From Terriglobia bacterium (lineage in GTDB: Bacteria; Acidobacteriota; Terriglobia; Acidiferrales; UBA7541): a stretch of DNA of 64,000 bases. The number at the start of each line of letters is the position of its first letter. Position 1 is the stretch's first letter. Shown piece after piece: positions 30,701 through 36,700 of the stretch. Position numbers: made by a program. Location of the stretch: positions 1,536,001 through 1,600,000 of the forward strand of contig OY968796.1 in the NCBI GenBank assembly GCA_963695545.1, in the 5' to 3' direction.

Positions 30701-33700
30701 CTGGCGTTATGACGCTCCCGCCGGCACCGAAATCCACACCTGCCAGCCCATCGGCCTGAACAAAGTTCTCTTTGTCCTCAATGGCCTCCCGCCCAAACTT
30801 TTGGTCGTCAATATCAAAACCAACAAAATCGAAGTTCAACACGATCTTCCCGCTCCCAGCGCGACCGATACAAAAACCATCCACGCACAGTTCCGCCGCG
30901 TGCGATATACCGCGCAGGGCACCTACCTCTGTTCTTTTCTCGAGATGAACCAGGTCGTCGAATACGATAAGCATTTCAAGGAAATCTGGAAATACGAAAT
31001 CAAAAGCCCCTGGGCCGCCCTGCGCCTCAAAAATGGCGACACCCTGATCACCGACGAGCACGATATTCTCACGCGCGAAGTAAATCCCCAGAAAGAAACC
31101 GTCTGGGAACTCCGCCCCACCGATCTCCCCGAGCCCTTCCGCTACATCAACACGCAAAGCGCCACGCGCCTCGCGAATGGCAACACCATCATCTGCTCCC
31201 GCGGCGGCGACGGAAAAGGCCCCCAGCTCGTCGAAGTCACTCCCGACAAAAAAGTCGCCTGGGTCCTCTGGGACTGGTCCGACTTCGGCCCCGCCACCGC
31301 CGTCCAAATCCTCGATGACCCCGCCATCCCCGAAAAACCCGGCCAATCCCAACACTGACGTGCTGCCGCCATCGCTCATCGCACTCCACGTAAAGTCTCC
31401 CAGGCTTTCAAAACCCCGCTAAACGCGGAGCCTCCCTCGCTTCACTTGCAGCTGCATTACAAGTTGACATTCCGCACTTGATCGACAAAGATTCCCCAAA
31501 GGTGTTGGAGTTCACCGTAACCGCCCTACTGGGCAGATAACTCCTACGAGGGTTTTTTCGTGGTGAGGGGTTTTCTGCTTTTGCGCTCGCTCGCTTCTCC
31601 ATTTTTCTCTCAATTCCCCTTCTTCCGCCTCGTTCTCTGTCCGCGCGCGATTGCTGAAGATCCGCGTTCGCCGGCGAAAATTGCATGAGTTCCGAACCGC
31701 GCAATCCCCCCGAACTAAATCTATCGCAGAAGCGCCGTCTGACGGTGACGTGTCAGCACATCGATAAGCAACTCACGGATGTCGAAGCCGTCTTGAACCA
31801 GAGCGCGTCGAAGGCCGCGTTCCCGAAGTATCGGTCCGAGATTCCCCTGGCCGAGCGAAGAACCATCGAAGGCTACATCGCCCGGATTCGCGCGCAGTTG
31901 CTCCGCGTGCTCGATGGTCAGCGCATTGAGAAGCCCGCGCCGGTCATCTCGCCGGTTCACGCCATCCACGTGAACTTAACCTTCATCGCCATCGCGGCCG
32001 AGGAGCTCTTTCCCCAATACATGCGCGGCTACGGCGAGCTCCCCGAGCCGCTCGCGGCCGAATTAAACGGCATCGCCGGAGAATTGTTGGGGCTCGTGTC
32101 CAAGTTGGATCGATACGTCGGCGCCGGCCTCGGCGAAGATCTAAAAGAGCGCCTCGAACGCCTCGAGAAAACCAGCGATGAATCCACCCTCCTGCGCAAG
32201 ATTGAACGAATAGTTTCCGCTCGCGGCATGGTCGAGTATCGCCAAGCCATCTCGAATATCCTCGACCGCGCGGAGGACCAGACTTTCGAGGTAGCCGTTT
32301 TCGGTCGCGTGAGTTCCGGAAAGTCTTCCCTGCTCAATGCCATCCTCGACACCGCGATTCTCCCCGTGGGCGTCACGCCGGTCACCGCCGTGCCCACGCG
32401 AATCGTTTATGGCCCGCGCGCCTCTCTCACGGTGCGTTTTGCCGAGCGGCCCTCGCGGTCGCTCGATATCGCCCGACTGCCGGAATTCGCCACCGAGCAG
32501 GGAAATCCCGGCAACCAGCGCCACGTCAGCCGGATCGTCGTCGAACTCCCCGCGGCGCGCCTCCAGAATGGCGTGAGCTTCGTCGATACGCCGGGCCTCG
32601 GTTCCCTGGCCACAAGCGGCGCTGCCGAAACTCTGGCCTATTTGCCCAAGTGCGATCTTGGAGTTGTATTGATCGACGCGGGCTCGAGTCTGACGCCCGG
32701 TGACATCCACACCATCGACGCGCTTCAGCAAGCGGCAATTCCCGCCGCGGTGCTGCTCAGCAAGGCGGACTTGCTGAGCGACGCGGATCGCGCGCGCATG
32801 GTCGCCTATATCTCCGAACAGTTGTCCACAGAGTGTCACGCGGAGCTAGCCGCGCACCCCGTCAGCGCGCTCCCTTCTCATCGCGAAATGCTCGATGTTT
32901 GGTTTCGCGCCGAGATTCTGCCGCTCTATGAACGCAGCCAGGAATTGCGCGCTGCATCCTTGAAACGAAAAGTCGGAGCGCTGCGCGATGCCGTCGCGTC
33001 TTCTCTTGCCGCGCGTCTCGGTCCTGGTTCAGGCGCGGCGATCCCGCCCGTGGAAAAACTTCGCGCGGCGGAGTCGCGCCTTCGCGCAGCGCACGGCGCA
33101 ATTGAAGCCATGGCGCGAGCTGTCGATCAGGAAACCGAAAGCATGCCTTCGCAGATTCAAGAGCCAATCGAAGCGGCCGCAGCCGAACTCATCGAATTGT
33201 GGCGCGGAGCGAAGGACTCGCTCGCCTCTCCTGGCGCGGTTGCGCGCGGTGCGATCGTCCGTGCAATTCAATCCCGCGTCCAGCGCATGCGCAAACAGAT
33301 GGAGTCGCTGGCGGAAAGCTTGTGGCGAGAGCTCGATGCGTCCGCCGAAGCGCTGGAAATTCCCGACAAGCCGAGCCGCGAGGAATTCGCATCCCTCGTT
33401 CGGGAATTGCCGGTTTTTGACGCTCCCGTGACGATCGCGAACTTGCGATTGCGCAAACCGGCGAGTCTCACGCTCCTCGGCAAACGAGTCGCGCGGGAAA
33501 TGCTGCGGCGTAAGCTGATGCGGGATCTCGCTTCATCGCTGGCCGTCGCGGTCCAAACCTACGCGGGATTGCTGCGCAAGTCGGCGCTGGCCGTCTTACA
33601 GCACCTGCGCGCGCATTTTGAATCCTATGCTGATAGCTACCGCGCCCAGGCCGCCGCGTATCAGGATGGCCACGCCCTCACCGGCGCGGAAATCGATGCC

Positions 33701-36700
33701 ATTCGCTCCGATCTCGAGTCGCTCGGCGTACACATGCATCCGTAACGCGCACGATCGCAGCGGACACCGCGCACGCGGTCGCCGCGATTTCTGATCGCGT
33801 CACGCAAGCGAACATGAAAACAGAAACGCGCGCAGCTCTCCCGGATCTGATCGGCAGAAATAGTGAACTTCGCCGTGTCCGCGCTGCCGTCCGCGCGAGA
33901 GAAAGTTTCCTGATCTGGGGTCCCGCGGACGCCGGAAAGACCGCTCTCGTGAAAAAGGCCATCTCGGAAGTCCCGGAGAGAGAGCGCCAGGGATGCATTT
34001 ATTGGAGCGGTGCGGCGAGCGTCCGCCAGTTGGCCGAGGAACTTCTGCGGCGTTTCTACGCCGCCGGGGATCCGTGCGTGCACAAGAAAGTACCCGAAGA
34101 CCGAAGCGGTCGCGAAACATCGGCCGACTCTTGGTTTCGGGATCGGTCGAGCGGACAGCTCAAAGCTCTCTTCTATCTCGCCGCCGCGAAGAGCCGCTAC
34201 GCGATTTTCCTGGATCACATGCCGCCCGCCACGCAACCCATGGCGCGTTTCCTGAAGCAGATCATCTGGAGATGCCACACCCCCGTCTATTTGCTCGCCC
34301 CAGGCTGTGATCGCGAGGATATCGGCCACGCGTGGAGCATTTACTTCGCCGAGCAATACCACATCGCAATCGGTCCTCTGTCTCCGGCGTTCGCCCGCGA
34401 ATTGCTCGAGCGATCCATCCGCCGTTTCGCCTTGGACCGATTTGATCTCTCCGGTTTTCGCGACGACATTCTGCGCATGAGCGGCCATCTCCCCGGCAGC
34501 CTCGTCAAAATGTGTGAATTGGCCGCCCAGCCCCGTTACCACTATGGAGACCAAATCAAAGTCAATCTCGTCCACGTCGACTATCTAATGCGCCGCGATC
34601 CTCTCGCCTCTCACCGCGCAGCCTTTACATCCGGCACATTCTGAGTCACGCTGCATACGACCAGCAGGAGTGGCTAAAATCATGATTGCAGTGCCCGAAA
34701 AATACGCGCTCGAAGTCGGCTCCCCCACGCCGATCAAATCCGAGCACCAACATGACCAATTCCTTTCCGTCTTGGACAAGCTGGCCGGCAAGGAACGTCC
34801 AACGCCTGAAGAAGTGAAATATGCCGAAGTCTTGATCACACTGATCGAAGCGTATGAAGAAGAGCGTTACGCCATTCCCGAAGCTCCCCCGATCGAAATC
34901 CTCCGCGCATTGATGTCCGCCAACGATCTCCGTCAAAAAGACCTCGTCCCGATCTTCGGCTCCGAAAGCATCGTATCCGAAATCCTCCACAAGAAACGCG
35001 ACCTCAACAAATCCCATATCTCCAAATTGAGCAAGCGATTCCAGATTTCTCCCGCCGCGTTTTTCTAAATTCGCGGCCCGTCCTCCGCAATTCGAATGAA
35101 TTTCCACAGCCTATTCGAATAACCCACACGTTATCATTGACATCCGCGCCATAACTGTGTTATCCTTCCGCATGACCCACGAACACACGCCCGCGCCGTC
35201 CAGCGTAACGTCTCGCCTAAGCGCACCCCGCGATCCCGCCGCCTCCGGATTCGCCCCACCCCGCCTTTTCCCATCGCACAATTTGCATTCTTCTGCACAA
35301 AATAGCCCCTCCAACCCATTTATTTTCAGTCGATTGCAAATGAGTGCGCATCTCATTGATACAACTCAATATCAACACATTTATTTTCACACTCATCCGC
35401 ACTCTTTCGCTGGAAGTCCCTTATTTACATCATTTTACGTATTTCATACCGGGGGTATATATACCCCAAGCAACTCCTCTGCGGCGCCCGCGCCCTTCGG
35501 AGCTACAATAGGACCCTATGTCGTCGCTTGAACAGCCTCGCGGAGTGCCCGGCCCGGTTGCCAGCGGCGGAACCCGTGCCGATTGGGCACTGCAAGCTCG
35601 CTTCGCCGAGCTTCTGGCCAAGGTGCGCCAAAACCGTCCCTCCGACGACACCGAACAATTGCGCCGCGCCTACGAATTCGCCGCCGAACAGCACAAAGGC
35701 CAAATGCGCAAATCCGGCGCACCCTACCTTTCGCATCCGCTTGAGGTCGCGCATATCCTCGCCGATATGAAGCTCGACACCACCACTCTCTGCGCGGCCC
35801 TGCTCCACGACGTCGTCGAGGACACGCGCGTTCCCATCAGCGAGATCACCGAGCGTTTCGGCGAAGACACCGCTCGCCTCGTCGAAGGCGTAACCAAAAT
35901 CGGACGCCTCGGCCAAATCGCACCTGAAGCCCGTCAGGCCGAAAATCTGCGCAAGATGTTGCTCGCCATGGTCGTCGATATCCGCGTGGTCGTCGTCAAG
36001 ATGGCCGATCGGCTCCACAACATGCGCACGCTCAGTTATCTTCCGCCCGAGCGGCAGGAATATATCGCGCGCGAAACTCTCGACCTCTACGCCCCCATCG
36101 CCCACCGCCTGGGCATGGGCTTGATGCGCGGCGAACTCGAAGATCTCGCCTTCAGTTATCTCGAGCCCACCGCGTTTCTCGAGCTCAAGAAAACTCTCGA
36201 AGCGCGCAGCAAGCCGTTCGAGCGTTTCCTCGCCGAGACGCAAGACGCCATCGGCAAGCGTCTGGTTGAAAACAGCATTCCCGCCGAAGTCGAAGGCCGC
36301 ATCAAGCGCCTCTATTCGATTCGCCAGAAAGCTCAGCGCCAGCAGCGCAGCCTCGACCAGATTTACGACCTGCTGGCCGTGCGCGTGATCACTGATTCCG
36401 TGCGCAATTGCTACGCGGCGCTCGGCGTGATTCACCAGATGTGGCGCCCCGTGCCCGGCCGATTCAAAGACTACATCGCCATGCCGCGCCCCAATCTTTA
36501 TCAGTCGCTGCACACCACCGTGATCCACGCGGGCCAGGCCTTCGAGGTCCAAATCCGCACGCAGGAAATGCATCGCATCGCCGAGCAGGGCGTCGCCGCG
36601 CACTGGAAGTACAAGGACGGCCGCCAGATCGCCGACGCCGACGACCAGCGCATCGTCTGGATGCGCCAATTGATCGAATGGGCCCGCGAGATGGAGGAGC

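Follow-up and report, generated by a model that had tools for sequence, protein, structure and literature searches.

In mycobacteria, the dynamin-family proteins IniA and IniC are induced by isoniazid. The title of the corresponding structure entry (PDB 6j72) likewise reads 'isoniazid inducible'. For other members of the family, such as Nostoc BDLP (2j68/2j69) and C. jejuni DLP1/DLP2 (5owv), the physiological signal is not known, and dynamins of the anti-phage Eleos kind (LeoA/LeoBC) belong to the context of defence islands. Fluoride riboswitches of the crcB motif (RF01734), such as the crcB leader of Bacillus cereus, are ON switches in which a competing hairpin overlaps the 3' side of a pseudoknotted aptamer. 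Among the regulon members named in the relevant passages of a review (PMC11139923) are exporters, Na+/H+ antiporters, pyrophosphatase, HAD phosphatases, enolase, and formate hydrogen lyase; no GTPase is named there. Here, we describe a locus in which an RNA switch of this family precedes a dynamin-like GTPase gene. A literature search, with the gene lists of Baker et al. (2012) outside its scope, returned no paper joining 'fluoride riboswitch' and 'dynamin', as the survey's finding had also stated.

The aptamer lies at positions 31492-31553 (+) of the window, by which we mean the whole 64-kb stretch of DNA that was analysed. The covariance model matched over its full length (1-64) and scored 42.0 bits, the gathering score being 34; this was the sole riboswitch match in the window. 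Our own model R1 scored the same segment at 62.1 bits. The letters of P1, P3, and the pseudoknot are all retained. An alignment of 41 related aptamers revealed covariation in the pseudoknot (GGAGU/ACUCC to GGCGU/ACGCC), compensatory variants of P1 (GGUG/CACC, GGCG/CGCC, GGAG/CUCC, and GGGG/CCCC), and a long-range pair occurring as A:U in 24 sequences, U:A in 15, G:C in one, and U:U in one. Flanking the pseudoknot strand, an A on its 5' side and a U on its 3' side (A49 and T54 here) are invariant in 41/41. A linchpin A-U pair, A40-U48 in B. cereus numbering, caps the pseudoknot according to the relevant part of a structural account (PMC8752731), and A49 and T54 would be its letters, the mapping being our own. 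Judged by its sequence, this is a genuine fluoride riboswitch, predicted to bind fluoride, and the survey was right to place it upstream of the dynamin gene on the same strand; the spacing from the end of the aptamer to the ATG is 131 nt, not the 132 nt given there. A perfect TTGACA followed by a 17-nt spacer and AAAGAT (31464-31492, +; 3/6 matches to TATAAT), read from the sequence and not returned by a consensus promoter scan, may serve as a weak candidate promoter.

The same 3' side of the aptamer is complementary to the leader RNA downstream. A stable hairpin (31531-31580, +; local fold -24.6 kcal/mol) would pair the aptamer 3' strand at 31531-47, comprising the 3' arm of P3, the linker, and the pseudoknot strand, with 31563-80, and is followed by a U4 run (31579-31582). 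The earlier description of a hairpin and U-run behind the aptamer thus held in part: a T6 run does follow the aptamer directly (31554-31559), but the stable hairpin overlaps the aptamer and has only four U behind it. The same complementarity was found in 13/14 related leaders folded; the duplex was more stable than random windows of the same locus (median z -3.2), and in 22/33 leaders at most 1% of the control windows reached its energy. When the 33 leaders were aligned with MAFFT, RNAalifold did not recover the hairpin, whose invariant 5' arm precludes any demonstration of covariation. The hairpin with its U4 run (31531-31582) is probably the terminator of an ON switch, the logic and the overlap being those of classical crcB-motif units, with which the aptamer shares family, pseudoknot, and linchpin letters. 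In contrast to those units, the U-tract is weak here, and it is not U-rich in many relatives either; because it is short, we can only infer termination as the mode of control.

The linkage between aptamer and dynamin gene extends well beyond this genome. Relatives of the GTPase (E<=1e-20) were present in 46/400 other genomes of the phylum, 41 of them with an upstream aptamer on the same strand, three without, and two at contig ends, where the linkage was untestable. Among the 29 best of these loci, 26 had the aptamer within 1.5 kb, in every case preceding the gene on its own strand (two of the 26 scoring below the gathering score), while in the remaining three it lay 1.5-1.9 kb upstream, at the head of crcB-DUF190-DUF190x2-dynamin or dynamin-dynamin operons. 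The other 17 genomes comprised 12 with an aptamer, three with none, and the two contig ends. In G151, G162, and G080, the putatively linked aptamer lies 2.8-4.8 kb upstream. Each of the 15 full-length orthologue loci in the order sample had an aptamer, 10/15 within 1.5 kb and the other five at a greater distance, at the head of Na+/H+ exchanger-Usp-(metallophosphoesterase-enolase)-dynamin operons; loci earlier listed as lacking one mostly have it further upstream, heading a longer operon. In GTDB genomes, the aptamer was present at 67 of the best 80 loci, and 10 with sufficient flank had none in the flank searched; the 67 include 5/8 loci with archaea in their record titles, Methanoregulaceae among them. 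As a control, another clade of Acidobacteriota dynamins had the aptamer at 0/17 loci. These independent counts are of the same size as those of the survey or larger, the divergent second aptamers it described were seen again (L014, L028, and L030), and the association it had reported across Acidobacteriota also spans other bacterial phyla, as judged by record title, and archaea of the Methanoregulaceae. The pairing of aptamer and dynamin is not due to chance and is conserved far beyond it, so that the membership of the GTPase in the fluoride regulon, as first proposed, is upheld. That fluoride induces the gene is a well-supported prediction, drawn from position and conservation only; no RNA run was found to contain the stretch.

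This distribution is nonetheless patchy. The GTPase gene was found neither in the two same-genus genomes (0/2) nor in 78/100 genomes of the order; it is therefore an accessory gene that cannot be a basic requirement for life with fluoride. The whole 4.16-Mb genome contains two fluoride aptamers, the second being the classical one already noted before crcB (C1:1807814-1807876, -, in contig numbering; 39.7 bits), with crcB (125 aa) and a double DUF190 gene behind it. Operons of relatives hold crcB, DUF190, Na+/H+ exchanger, Usp, and enolase genes and share with classical units the regulon members crcB, Na+/H+ antiporter, enolase, and phosphoesterases; what sets the present unit apart is that the gene under control encodes a dynamin-like GTPase.

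This GTPase (g01340, P0001; 31685-33745, +) is a 'long form' of 686 aa, with a Dynamin_N match at residues 203-340 (76.1 bits against a cut-off of 27). The GTPase domain (residues ~198-396; 32276-32872, +) contains G1 (GRVSSGKS at 207), G3 (DTPG at 301), and G4 (SKAD at 359), and GTPase-domain residues are invariant across 21 orthologues. The part of the model behind it (residues ~397-686; 32873-33742, +) has the secondary structure of a helical neck and trunk and aligns with the BDLP, IniA, and Cj-DLP stalks. Profile searches against PDB sequences matched C. jejuni DLP1 and DLP2 (5.6e-38 and 8.2e-35), Nostoc BDLP (1.6e-33), and IniA (2.9e-33) over query residues 166-646. Foldseek comparison of the structure model (pLDDT 88.7, pTM 0.74) ranked IniA as the best structural match (1.7e-16), followed by BDLP (4.5e-16), with 565-685 columns aligned. 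On sequence and predicted fold, the protein is a bacterial dynamin of the BDLP/IniA type. Like IniA, it combines one G domain with a helical neck and trunk and has no transmembrane segment: as the survey had observed, none was found, the best 19-residue hydropathy window (1.65) lying in a buried helix of the N-terminal domain. Unlike IniA, with which it shares 18% identity, it has an additional N-terminal domain of ~150 residues. If the prediction holds, both would be dynamins switched on by chemical stress, with a different inducer and, here, control by an RNA switch. Unlike in BDLP and Cj-DLP, no recognisable paddle was found, the trunk tip showing only a conserved loop in which P576 is invariant and at least 90% of alignment rows share R573 and F578; in contrast to those proteins, a signal is implied for the GTPase. 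As with DLP1/DLP2, another dynamin gene, shorter than the long form, lies near it in relatives, but only the long form occurs in this genome: a single strong Dynamin_N match (79.6 bits) bears out its description as the only dynamin, the four other matches (21.7-24.2 bits each) falling in other GTPase frames.

A small hairpin (33774-33786) separates the GTPase gene from a gene (g01341, P0002; 33814-34644, +) for an AAA_16/STAND-like P-loop NTPase of 276 aa. Its AAA_16 match (32.6 bits) equals the cut-off, its Walker A motif reads GPADAGKT, and its structural neighbours in the Atlas are AAA_16, AAA_22, and NB-ARC clusters (TM 0.65-0.91), the AAA_16 clusters being mostly from Acidobacteriota. Neither sensor repeats nor an effector domain were found in the 276 aa, which contain no further Pfam domain, and as judged from its sequence the protein is a bare NTPase module. 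Homologues with 35-53% identity directly follow the long-form gene in L039, L041, L045, L050, and L051, a more distant one does so in L014, and L012 has a convergent one; the P-loop gene suggested earlier is confirmed and does recur, beside seven of the long-form genes examined. It is probably the second gene of the operon, co-transcribed with the first, the small hairpin between them counting against this. The third ORF (g01342, 132 aa; 34670-35068, +) has no Pfam match, gives a PADLOC PD-Lambda-2_B score of 87.3 bits, and has no counterpart in any related locus; it is probably an unrelated HTH gene.

Taken with some reserve, the most plausible reading is that of a fluoride-inducible operon under an ON switch, in which the GTPase would be an accessory, membrane-acting arm of the fluoride response. 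Without fluoride, the aptamer 3' strand would pair downstream (31531-31580, then U4), and transcription would most likely stop. With fluoride, the Mg-fluoride-bound pseudoknot would hold this strand, and RNA polymerase would continue into 31685-33745, read-through probably reaching the AAA_16 NTPase gene at 33814-34644. The GTPase may then seal, fuse, or reshape the cytoplasmic membrane while CrcB exports fluoride. Membrane repair or remodelling under fluoride stress is a guess, as is the survey's other suggestion of a substitute for GTPases that metal fluorides have poisoned.

The N-terminal helical domain (residues ~10-148; 31712-32128, +) bears on how such an arm might be attached. A Pfam search with it gave nothing above noise at E<=10. 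In alignment A4, LN (11-12), D27, P110, and GYG (115-117) are invariant. A profile search retrieved 1701 cluster representatives at E<=0.001, of which 366 reached E<=1e-30; among the best 150 matches, 96 are at least 600 aa and 43 at most 320 aa long. In other genomes the domain is a separate gene of 150-180 aa, located between aptamer and crcB in L053-L056 and split beside the GTPase gene in L024 and L025, and all four stand-alone loci of the order sample have a fluoride aptamer. Elsewhere, then, such fluoride operons encode the domain as a protein of its own, often between aptamer and crcB. Instead of mending membrane in general, the GTPase might work with the fluoride export module, using this domain to organise, recruit, or regulate CrcB and the P-II-like DUF190 proteins at the membrane; in keeping with this, crcB and DUF190 genes directly follow the long-form gene in five loci (L040, L043, L044, L048, and L052) and precede it in three (L010, L067, and L068). 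However, crcB-DUF190 lies 240 kb away in the present genome, behind its own aptamer, and many related operons combine the GTPase with enolase, with a Na+/H+ exchanger, or with no transporter, and we consider this explanation unlikely.

Fluoride might also act on the protein itself, GDP with Mg- or Al-fluoride mimicking the transition state and locking G-domain dimers, so that the induced protein would be a membrane tether or a sink sparing essential GTPases. In vitro, G-domain dimers of dynamin-family proteins become more stable with GDP-AlF4-, and soluble aluminium is abundant in acidic soils, the habitat of these organisms. The intact G1, G3, and G4 motifs and the presence of the stretch's DNA in soil metagenomes are compatible with such a lock. 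Yet no sequence feature sets this G domain apart from those of other dynamins, a stoichiometric sink cannot handle millimolar fluoride, and the idea is pure conjecture; we consider it improbable. A bolder combination would be double control, with induction by the riboswitch and a Mg-/Al-fluoride-GDP lock, yielding a fluoride-gated tether or sealer docked by the N-terminal domain to CrcB/DUF190, for which we would give similarly long odds.

Compared with the inducible operon favoured above, it is very doubtful that the riboswitch is a relic or controls only a short leader, the GTPase being transcribed from its own promoter and not fluoride-regulated here. The 131 nt to the start codon and the weak terminator U-tract would fit, but aptamer, competing hairpin, and gene follow one another in the same way across the taxonomic order, where the proteins share 48-76% identity, and the consensus scan found no promoter-like site in 31553-31685. 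Comparison with Eleos gave only weak LeoA and LeoBC profile matches in common, no second or third Leo gene, and a context of fluoride stress instead of defence islands; with one strong Dynamin_N gene flanked by an AAA_16 NTPase and an HTH protein, membership was rejected. That an Eleos-like anti-phage dynamin with a STAND-like NTPase stands near the riboswitch by chance is scarcely credible, despite PADLOC scores of 42.3 (LeoA) and 30.3 bits (LeoBC), weak STAND matches for the NTPase, and the PD-Lambda-2_B score of the third ORF, as the linkage to aptamers, crcB, enolase, and Na+/H+ exchanger recurs (41/46 genomes of the phylum sample), a single dynamin gene leaves no LeoA/LeoBC pair, and related loci lack the third ORF.

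If double control were true, the unit would represent a new, horizontally mobile fluoride-defence module of acid-soil bacteria and methanogens. More generally, the pairing of fluoride aptamer and dynamin suggests that microbes may also withstand fluoride by caring for their membrane, a so far unrecognised side of the response.

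The fluoride riboswitch aptamer (RF01734, 31492-31553, + strand) matches the whole Rfam model at 42.0 bits against a gathering score of 34 and is the sole riboswitch found by Rfam in the 64-kb window, where the only other Rfam match is a tRNA gene (40515-40588, +; 69.5 bits). The next ORF on the same strand begins 131 nt after the end of the aptamer and encodes the 686-aa dynamin-like GTPase (31685-33745, +), with Dynamin_N at residues 203-340 (76.1 bits). It is followed by a 276-aa ORF (P0002; 33814-34644, +), whose AAA_16 match of 32.6 bits exactly equals the cut-off, and by a third ORF of 132 aa (34670-35068, +) falling in no Pfam or NCBIfam family; all three proteins stayed below the cut-offs of the NCBIfam models. 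Further downstream lies relA/spoT (35518-37749), with its own promoter-like site at 35137-35166. Two fluoride aptamers occur in the genome (one contig, 4.16 Mb), the second preceding crcB and a double DUF190 gene, and the GTPase of the window is its only strong Dynamin_N gene. The aptamer, the dynamin gene with its two following ORFs, the second aptamer before crcB and the single strong dynamin are all present as described in the survey's finding. Sequencing runs matching the stretch comprised four soil-metagenome DNA runs of one study, two of them possibly its source, and no RNA run containing it was found.

Three samples of relatives were used to assess how far this arrangement recurs. Among 400 other genomes of the phylum, 46 carry a relative of the GTPase at E ≤ 1e-20. 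An aptamer was detected within the 1.5-kb flank in 26 of the 29 best loci, two of them with scores under the gathering threshold (31.7 and 29.9 bits), and all 26 lie upstream and on the strand of the gene. For the remaining three, the aptamer is 1.5-1.9 kb upstream (33.2 bits in one case) and heads an operon of the form aptamer-crcB-DUF190-DUF190x2-dynamin (twice) or aptamer-dynamin-dynamin (once). The other 17 genomes were scanned with a covariance model built from 41 aptamers: 12 have a same-strand upstream aptamer, three have none in the flank available, and two loci are at contig ends. Three of these 12 aptamers are 2.8-4.8 kb away and are counted on strand and position. Overall, an aptamer accompanies the gene in 41 of the 46 phylum genomes, is absent in three, and the last two are untestable. 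Several loci show further particularities. Two short-form dynamin genes stand behind strong aptamers of 53.2 and 53.8 bits at L032 (G128) and L033 (G092), each with one in-frame stop (TAG and TAA, respectively) that could reflect a pseudogene, a sequencing error or a split gene. At four loci (L014, L028, L030 and L063), fluoride aptamers are found back-to-back and divergent, 80-700 nt apart, heading genes on both strands; those of L014 have an ABC transporter ATPase on one side and the dynamin on the other.

Within the order, a match was found in 22 of 100 other genomes and in neither of the two same-genus genomes. Aptamer counts, which leave out the weaker matches of G460, G466 and G479, concern 15 full-length orthologue loci (48-76% identity). 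Ten have an aptamer within 1.5 kb, nine at the gathering score or above and one at 33.4 bits; in the other five it is located further upstream (30.9 bits in one), before Na+/H+ exchanger-Usp-(metallophosphoesterase-enolase) genes running into the dynamin gene. A pattern scan of GTDB species genomes confirmed at least 567 relatives, and a same-strand aptamer was located in the upstream 3 kb of 67 of the best 80 of these loci. The 13 others include two with less than 200 nt of flank, ten without an aptamer, and the G468 locus, where the distance to the upstream aptamer is 4.5 kb. The phylum, order and GTDB counts are not independent, because several of the 80 GTDB loci belong to the same genomes as the order sample. 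As a control, a second Acidobacteriota dynamin clade, not matched by the GTPase protein query, showed no aptamer at any of its 17 loci (E ≤ 0.01; flanks of at least 3 kb). The proteins of this clade (L179-L195) are dynamin-like, about 580-750 aa long, and have a Dynamin_N domain split by an insert (profile positions 1-47 and 85-168). At L055, an Acido-Lenti-1 RNA (RF01687, 844-888, +; 40.2 bits, gathering score 37) was also observed, with the fluoride aptamer about 450 nt downstream of it.

Eight GTDB loci with archaeal titles (L087, L099, L109, L116, L119, L131, L133 and L140) encode full-length long-form orthologues with 46-59% identity. Their record titles name Methanoregula, Methanoregulaceae, Methanolinea and Methanosarcina hadiensis, the last being a complete isolate genome, and a same-strand upstream fluoride aptamer is present in five of the eight. 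This distribution points to a transfer of the whole module between peat or acid-soil bacteria and methanogen archaea. Linkage of the GTPase to fluoride aptamers and to known fluoride genes is found again in different families and phyla and, judging from record titles, in the Methanoregulaceae; the case for a regulatory link between the riboswitch and the GTPase is strong, although positional.

The aptamer itself was examined in an alignment of 41 aptamers from the genome of the window and related loci. Compensatory changes support both P1 (GGUG/CACC, GGCG/CGCC, GGAG/CUCC and GGGG/CCCC) and the pseudoknot (GGAGU/ACUCC and GGCGU/ACGCC). The letter following the 5' arm of P1 covaries with the letter following the 3' arm of P3 (A:U 24, U:A 15, G:C 1, U:U 1), at two unpaired-looking positions corresponding to columns 14 and 61 of alignment A2 (31505 and 31535 in the window), where the crystal structure of the fluoride aptamer is reported to have a long-range pair. 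The aptamer of the window has the U:A version, and this swapped version is common to the clade around its genome and also occurs in the genome's own crcB aptamer. An A preceding and a U following the pseudoknot strand are invariant in all 41 aptamers. By our own mapping to the Bacillus cereus aptamer, these would be the letters forming the linchpin pair, given as A40-U48 in PMC8752731.

Downstream of the aptamer, its 3' strand (31531-31547) can pair with 31563-31580 in a local fold of -24.6 kcal/mol followed by U4, and an equivalent competing hairpin was found in 13 of 14 related leaders folded. RNAalifold, applied to a MAFFT alignment of 33 leaders, did not recover this hairpin and gave only a trivial 5-pair structure; the pairing was therefore evaluated sequence by sequence, by setting the duplex between the aptamer 3' strand and the 60 nt that follow against windows drawn at random from that locus. 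Across the 33 leaders, the duplex energy had a median z of -3.2, and the observed value was reached by at most 1% of control windows in 22. The U-tract following the hairpin is short in the window and often not U-rich in relatives. The ON-switch logic of the leader is well supported, and intrinsic termination is the likely mode of control, with the short U-tract and the RNAalifold result as cautions. Between the hairpin and the start codon, the leader (31583-31660, +) is rich in C and U and poor in G (C 30, T 27, G 14 and A 7 of 78), a composition resembling a Rho-loading site and not obviously conserved in the closest relative, L038. A 35-codon leader ORF (UUG 31581 to UGA 31688, with an AUGA overlap with the ATG of the GTPase) was rejected as a chance occurrence, since its frame closes after 15 codons in this 76%-identical locus. 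Fluoride would stabilise the pseudoknot and prevent formation of the competing hairpin, and transcription would then proceed to the genes of the GTPase and the AAA_16 protein.

The GTPase is a BDLP/IniA-type bacterial dynamin. A profile built from 45 relatives matches, over the G domain and the stalk, Campylobacter jejuni DLP1 and DLP2 (5.6e-38 and 8.2e-35), Nostoc BDLP (1.6e-33) and Mycobacterium smegmatis IniA (2.9e-33), and the best Foldseek matches of its confident AlphaFold model (pLDDT 88.7, pTM 0.74) are IniA and BDLP. A conserved loop (R573, P576 and F578) is found at the turn of the trunk of the model, and a search for a transmembrane segment was negative. PADLOC returned weak LeoA and LeoBC matches for the GTPase, and no second Leo gene was found. 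Relatives usually have another, shorter dynamin gene at a distance of 1-3 kb, and the genome of the window has none; in G439, the dynamin-like gene preceding the long form (L044:3-1277, +) matched DUF6062 weakly (24.1 bits against a cut-off of 27). We infer that, under fluoride and acid stress, the GTPase has the cytoplasmic membrane as its site of action.

The long form carries an additional helical N-domain of about 150 residues (residues ~10-148). Folded alone, it reached a pLDDT of 82; Pfam searches at E ≤ 10 with four N-domain proteins returned noise only, and comparison with about 48,000 PDB representatives gave a best Z of 7.9, always to helical hairpins of about 60 residues, and no specific fold. 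An N-domain profile retrieved 1701 cluster representatives at E ≤ 0.001; among the best 150, 96 are fused proteins of about 650-720 aa and 43 have 320 aa or less. In four genomes of the order, a stand-alone N-domain gene (171-181 aa) is found in the arrangement aptamer, N-domain, crcB, DUF190x2 and DUF190. The phylum sample has 13 genomes with the N-domain as a separate or split gene: six with a same-strand aptamer within 1.5 kb upstream, four without, one at a contig end, and two in which the gene is located between two aptamers and behind neither. Given the stand-alone genes in fluoride operons, the long form is a fusion of two proteins that are elsewhere separate members of the same operons. 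With crcB and DUF190 as its neighbours there, the N-domain might be the means by which the GTPase works with the CrcB/DUF190 module, a reading that we consider less likely than an action on the membrane. Also less likely is that metal fluorides act on the G domain of the GTPase, in which the G1, G3 and G4 motifs are intact. N-domain-like frames interrupted by one TGA each were observed at L222 (G014:C4:92350-92781) and L218 (G111:C35:19612-20133); the former is preceded, about 800 nt upstream, by a fluoride aptamer. Its genome has no dynamin match, and the frame could be a degraded leftover of the module within the family to which the window's genome belongs.

The AAA_16 protein is a bare P-loop module. 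In five of the 15 order loci, the long-form gene is directly followed by a homologue of P0002 (35-53% identity). In G140 a more distant homologue comes after the long-form gene, and another, in G269, is convergent and placed after a DUF190 gene. Prediction of a complex between the GTPase and the AAA_16 protein (alignments A3 and A5) gave a score of 0.00 and a mark of 0.32 and speaks neither for nor against a contact. The third ORF was rejected as an operon member because tblastn found no homologue in the related loci L009-L056. It matches the N-terminal part of PADLOC PD-Lambda-2_B (87.3 bits, profile positions 6-114 of 402) and looks like an HTH protein with an XRE/HigA-type C-terminal half, with no toxin-like ORF beside it.

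Genes associated with the riboswitch include, in the accessible text of a fluoride review (PMC11139923), exporters, Na+/H+ antiporters, a pyrophosphatase, HAD phosphatases, enolase and formate hydrogen lyase, and that text contains neither 'GTP' nor 'dynamin'. Likewise, 'GTPase' and 'dynamin' are absent from PMC7266159. In Weinberg 2010, mention is made of mutS, K+/Cl- transport and formate hydrogen lyase, and 'dynamin', 'GTPase' and 'GTP' do not occur in eight of its supplements. A full-text literature search, in which hits were judged by title and the opening lines of the abstract, returned no paper linking the fluoride riboswitch with a dynamin; the gene tables of Baker et al. 2012 were outside this search and may tabulate the pairing. 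Within this literature, the locus is a fluoride-riboswitch operon with a cargo class, the dynamin GTPase, not described for it. The fluoride regulon has so far comprised exporters, pH and ion homeostasis and fluoride-sensitive enzymes, to which would be added a putative membrane-acting GTPase, an undescribed helical domain family of about 150 residues and a bare AAA_16 NTPase. The physiological signals to which bacterial dynamins respond are for the most part not known, and here an ion-specific, well-understood sensor appears to be wired to one dynamin clade in many lineages. This linkage offers an inducer that is natural and can be titrated, together with a clear hypothesis, so that the question of what switches a bacterial dynamin on becomes directly testable.
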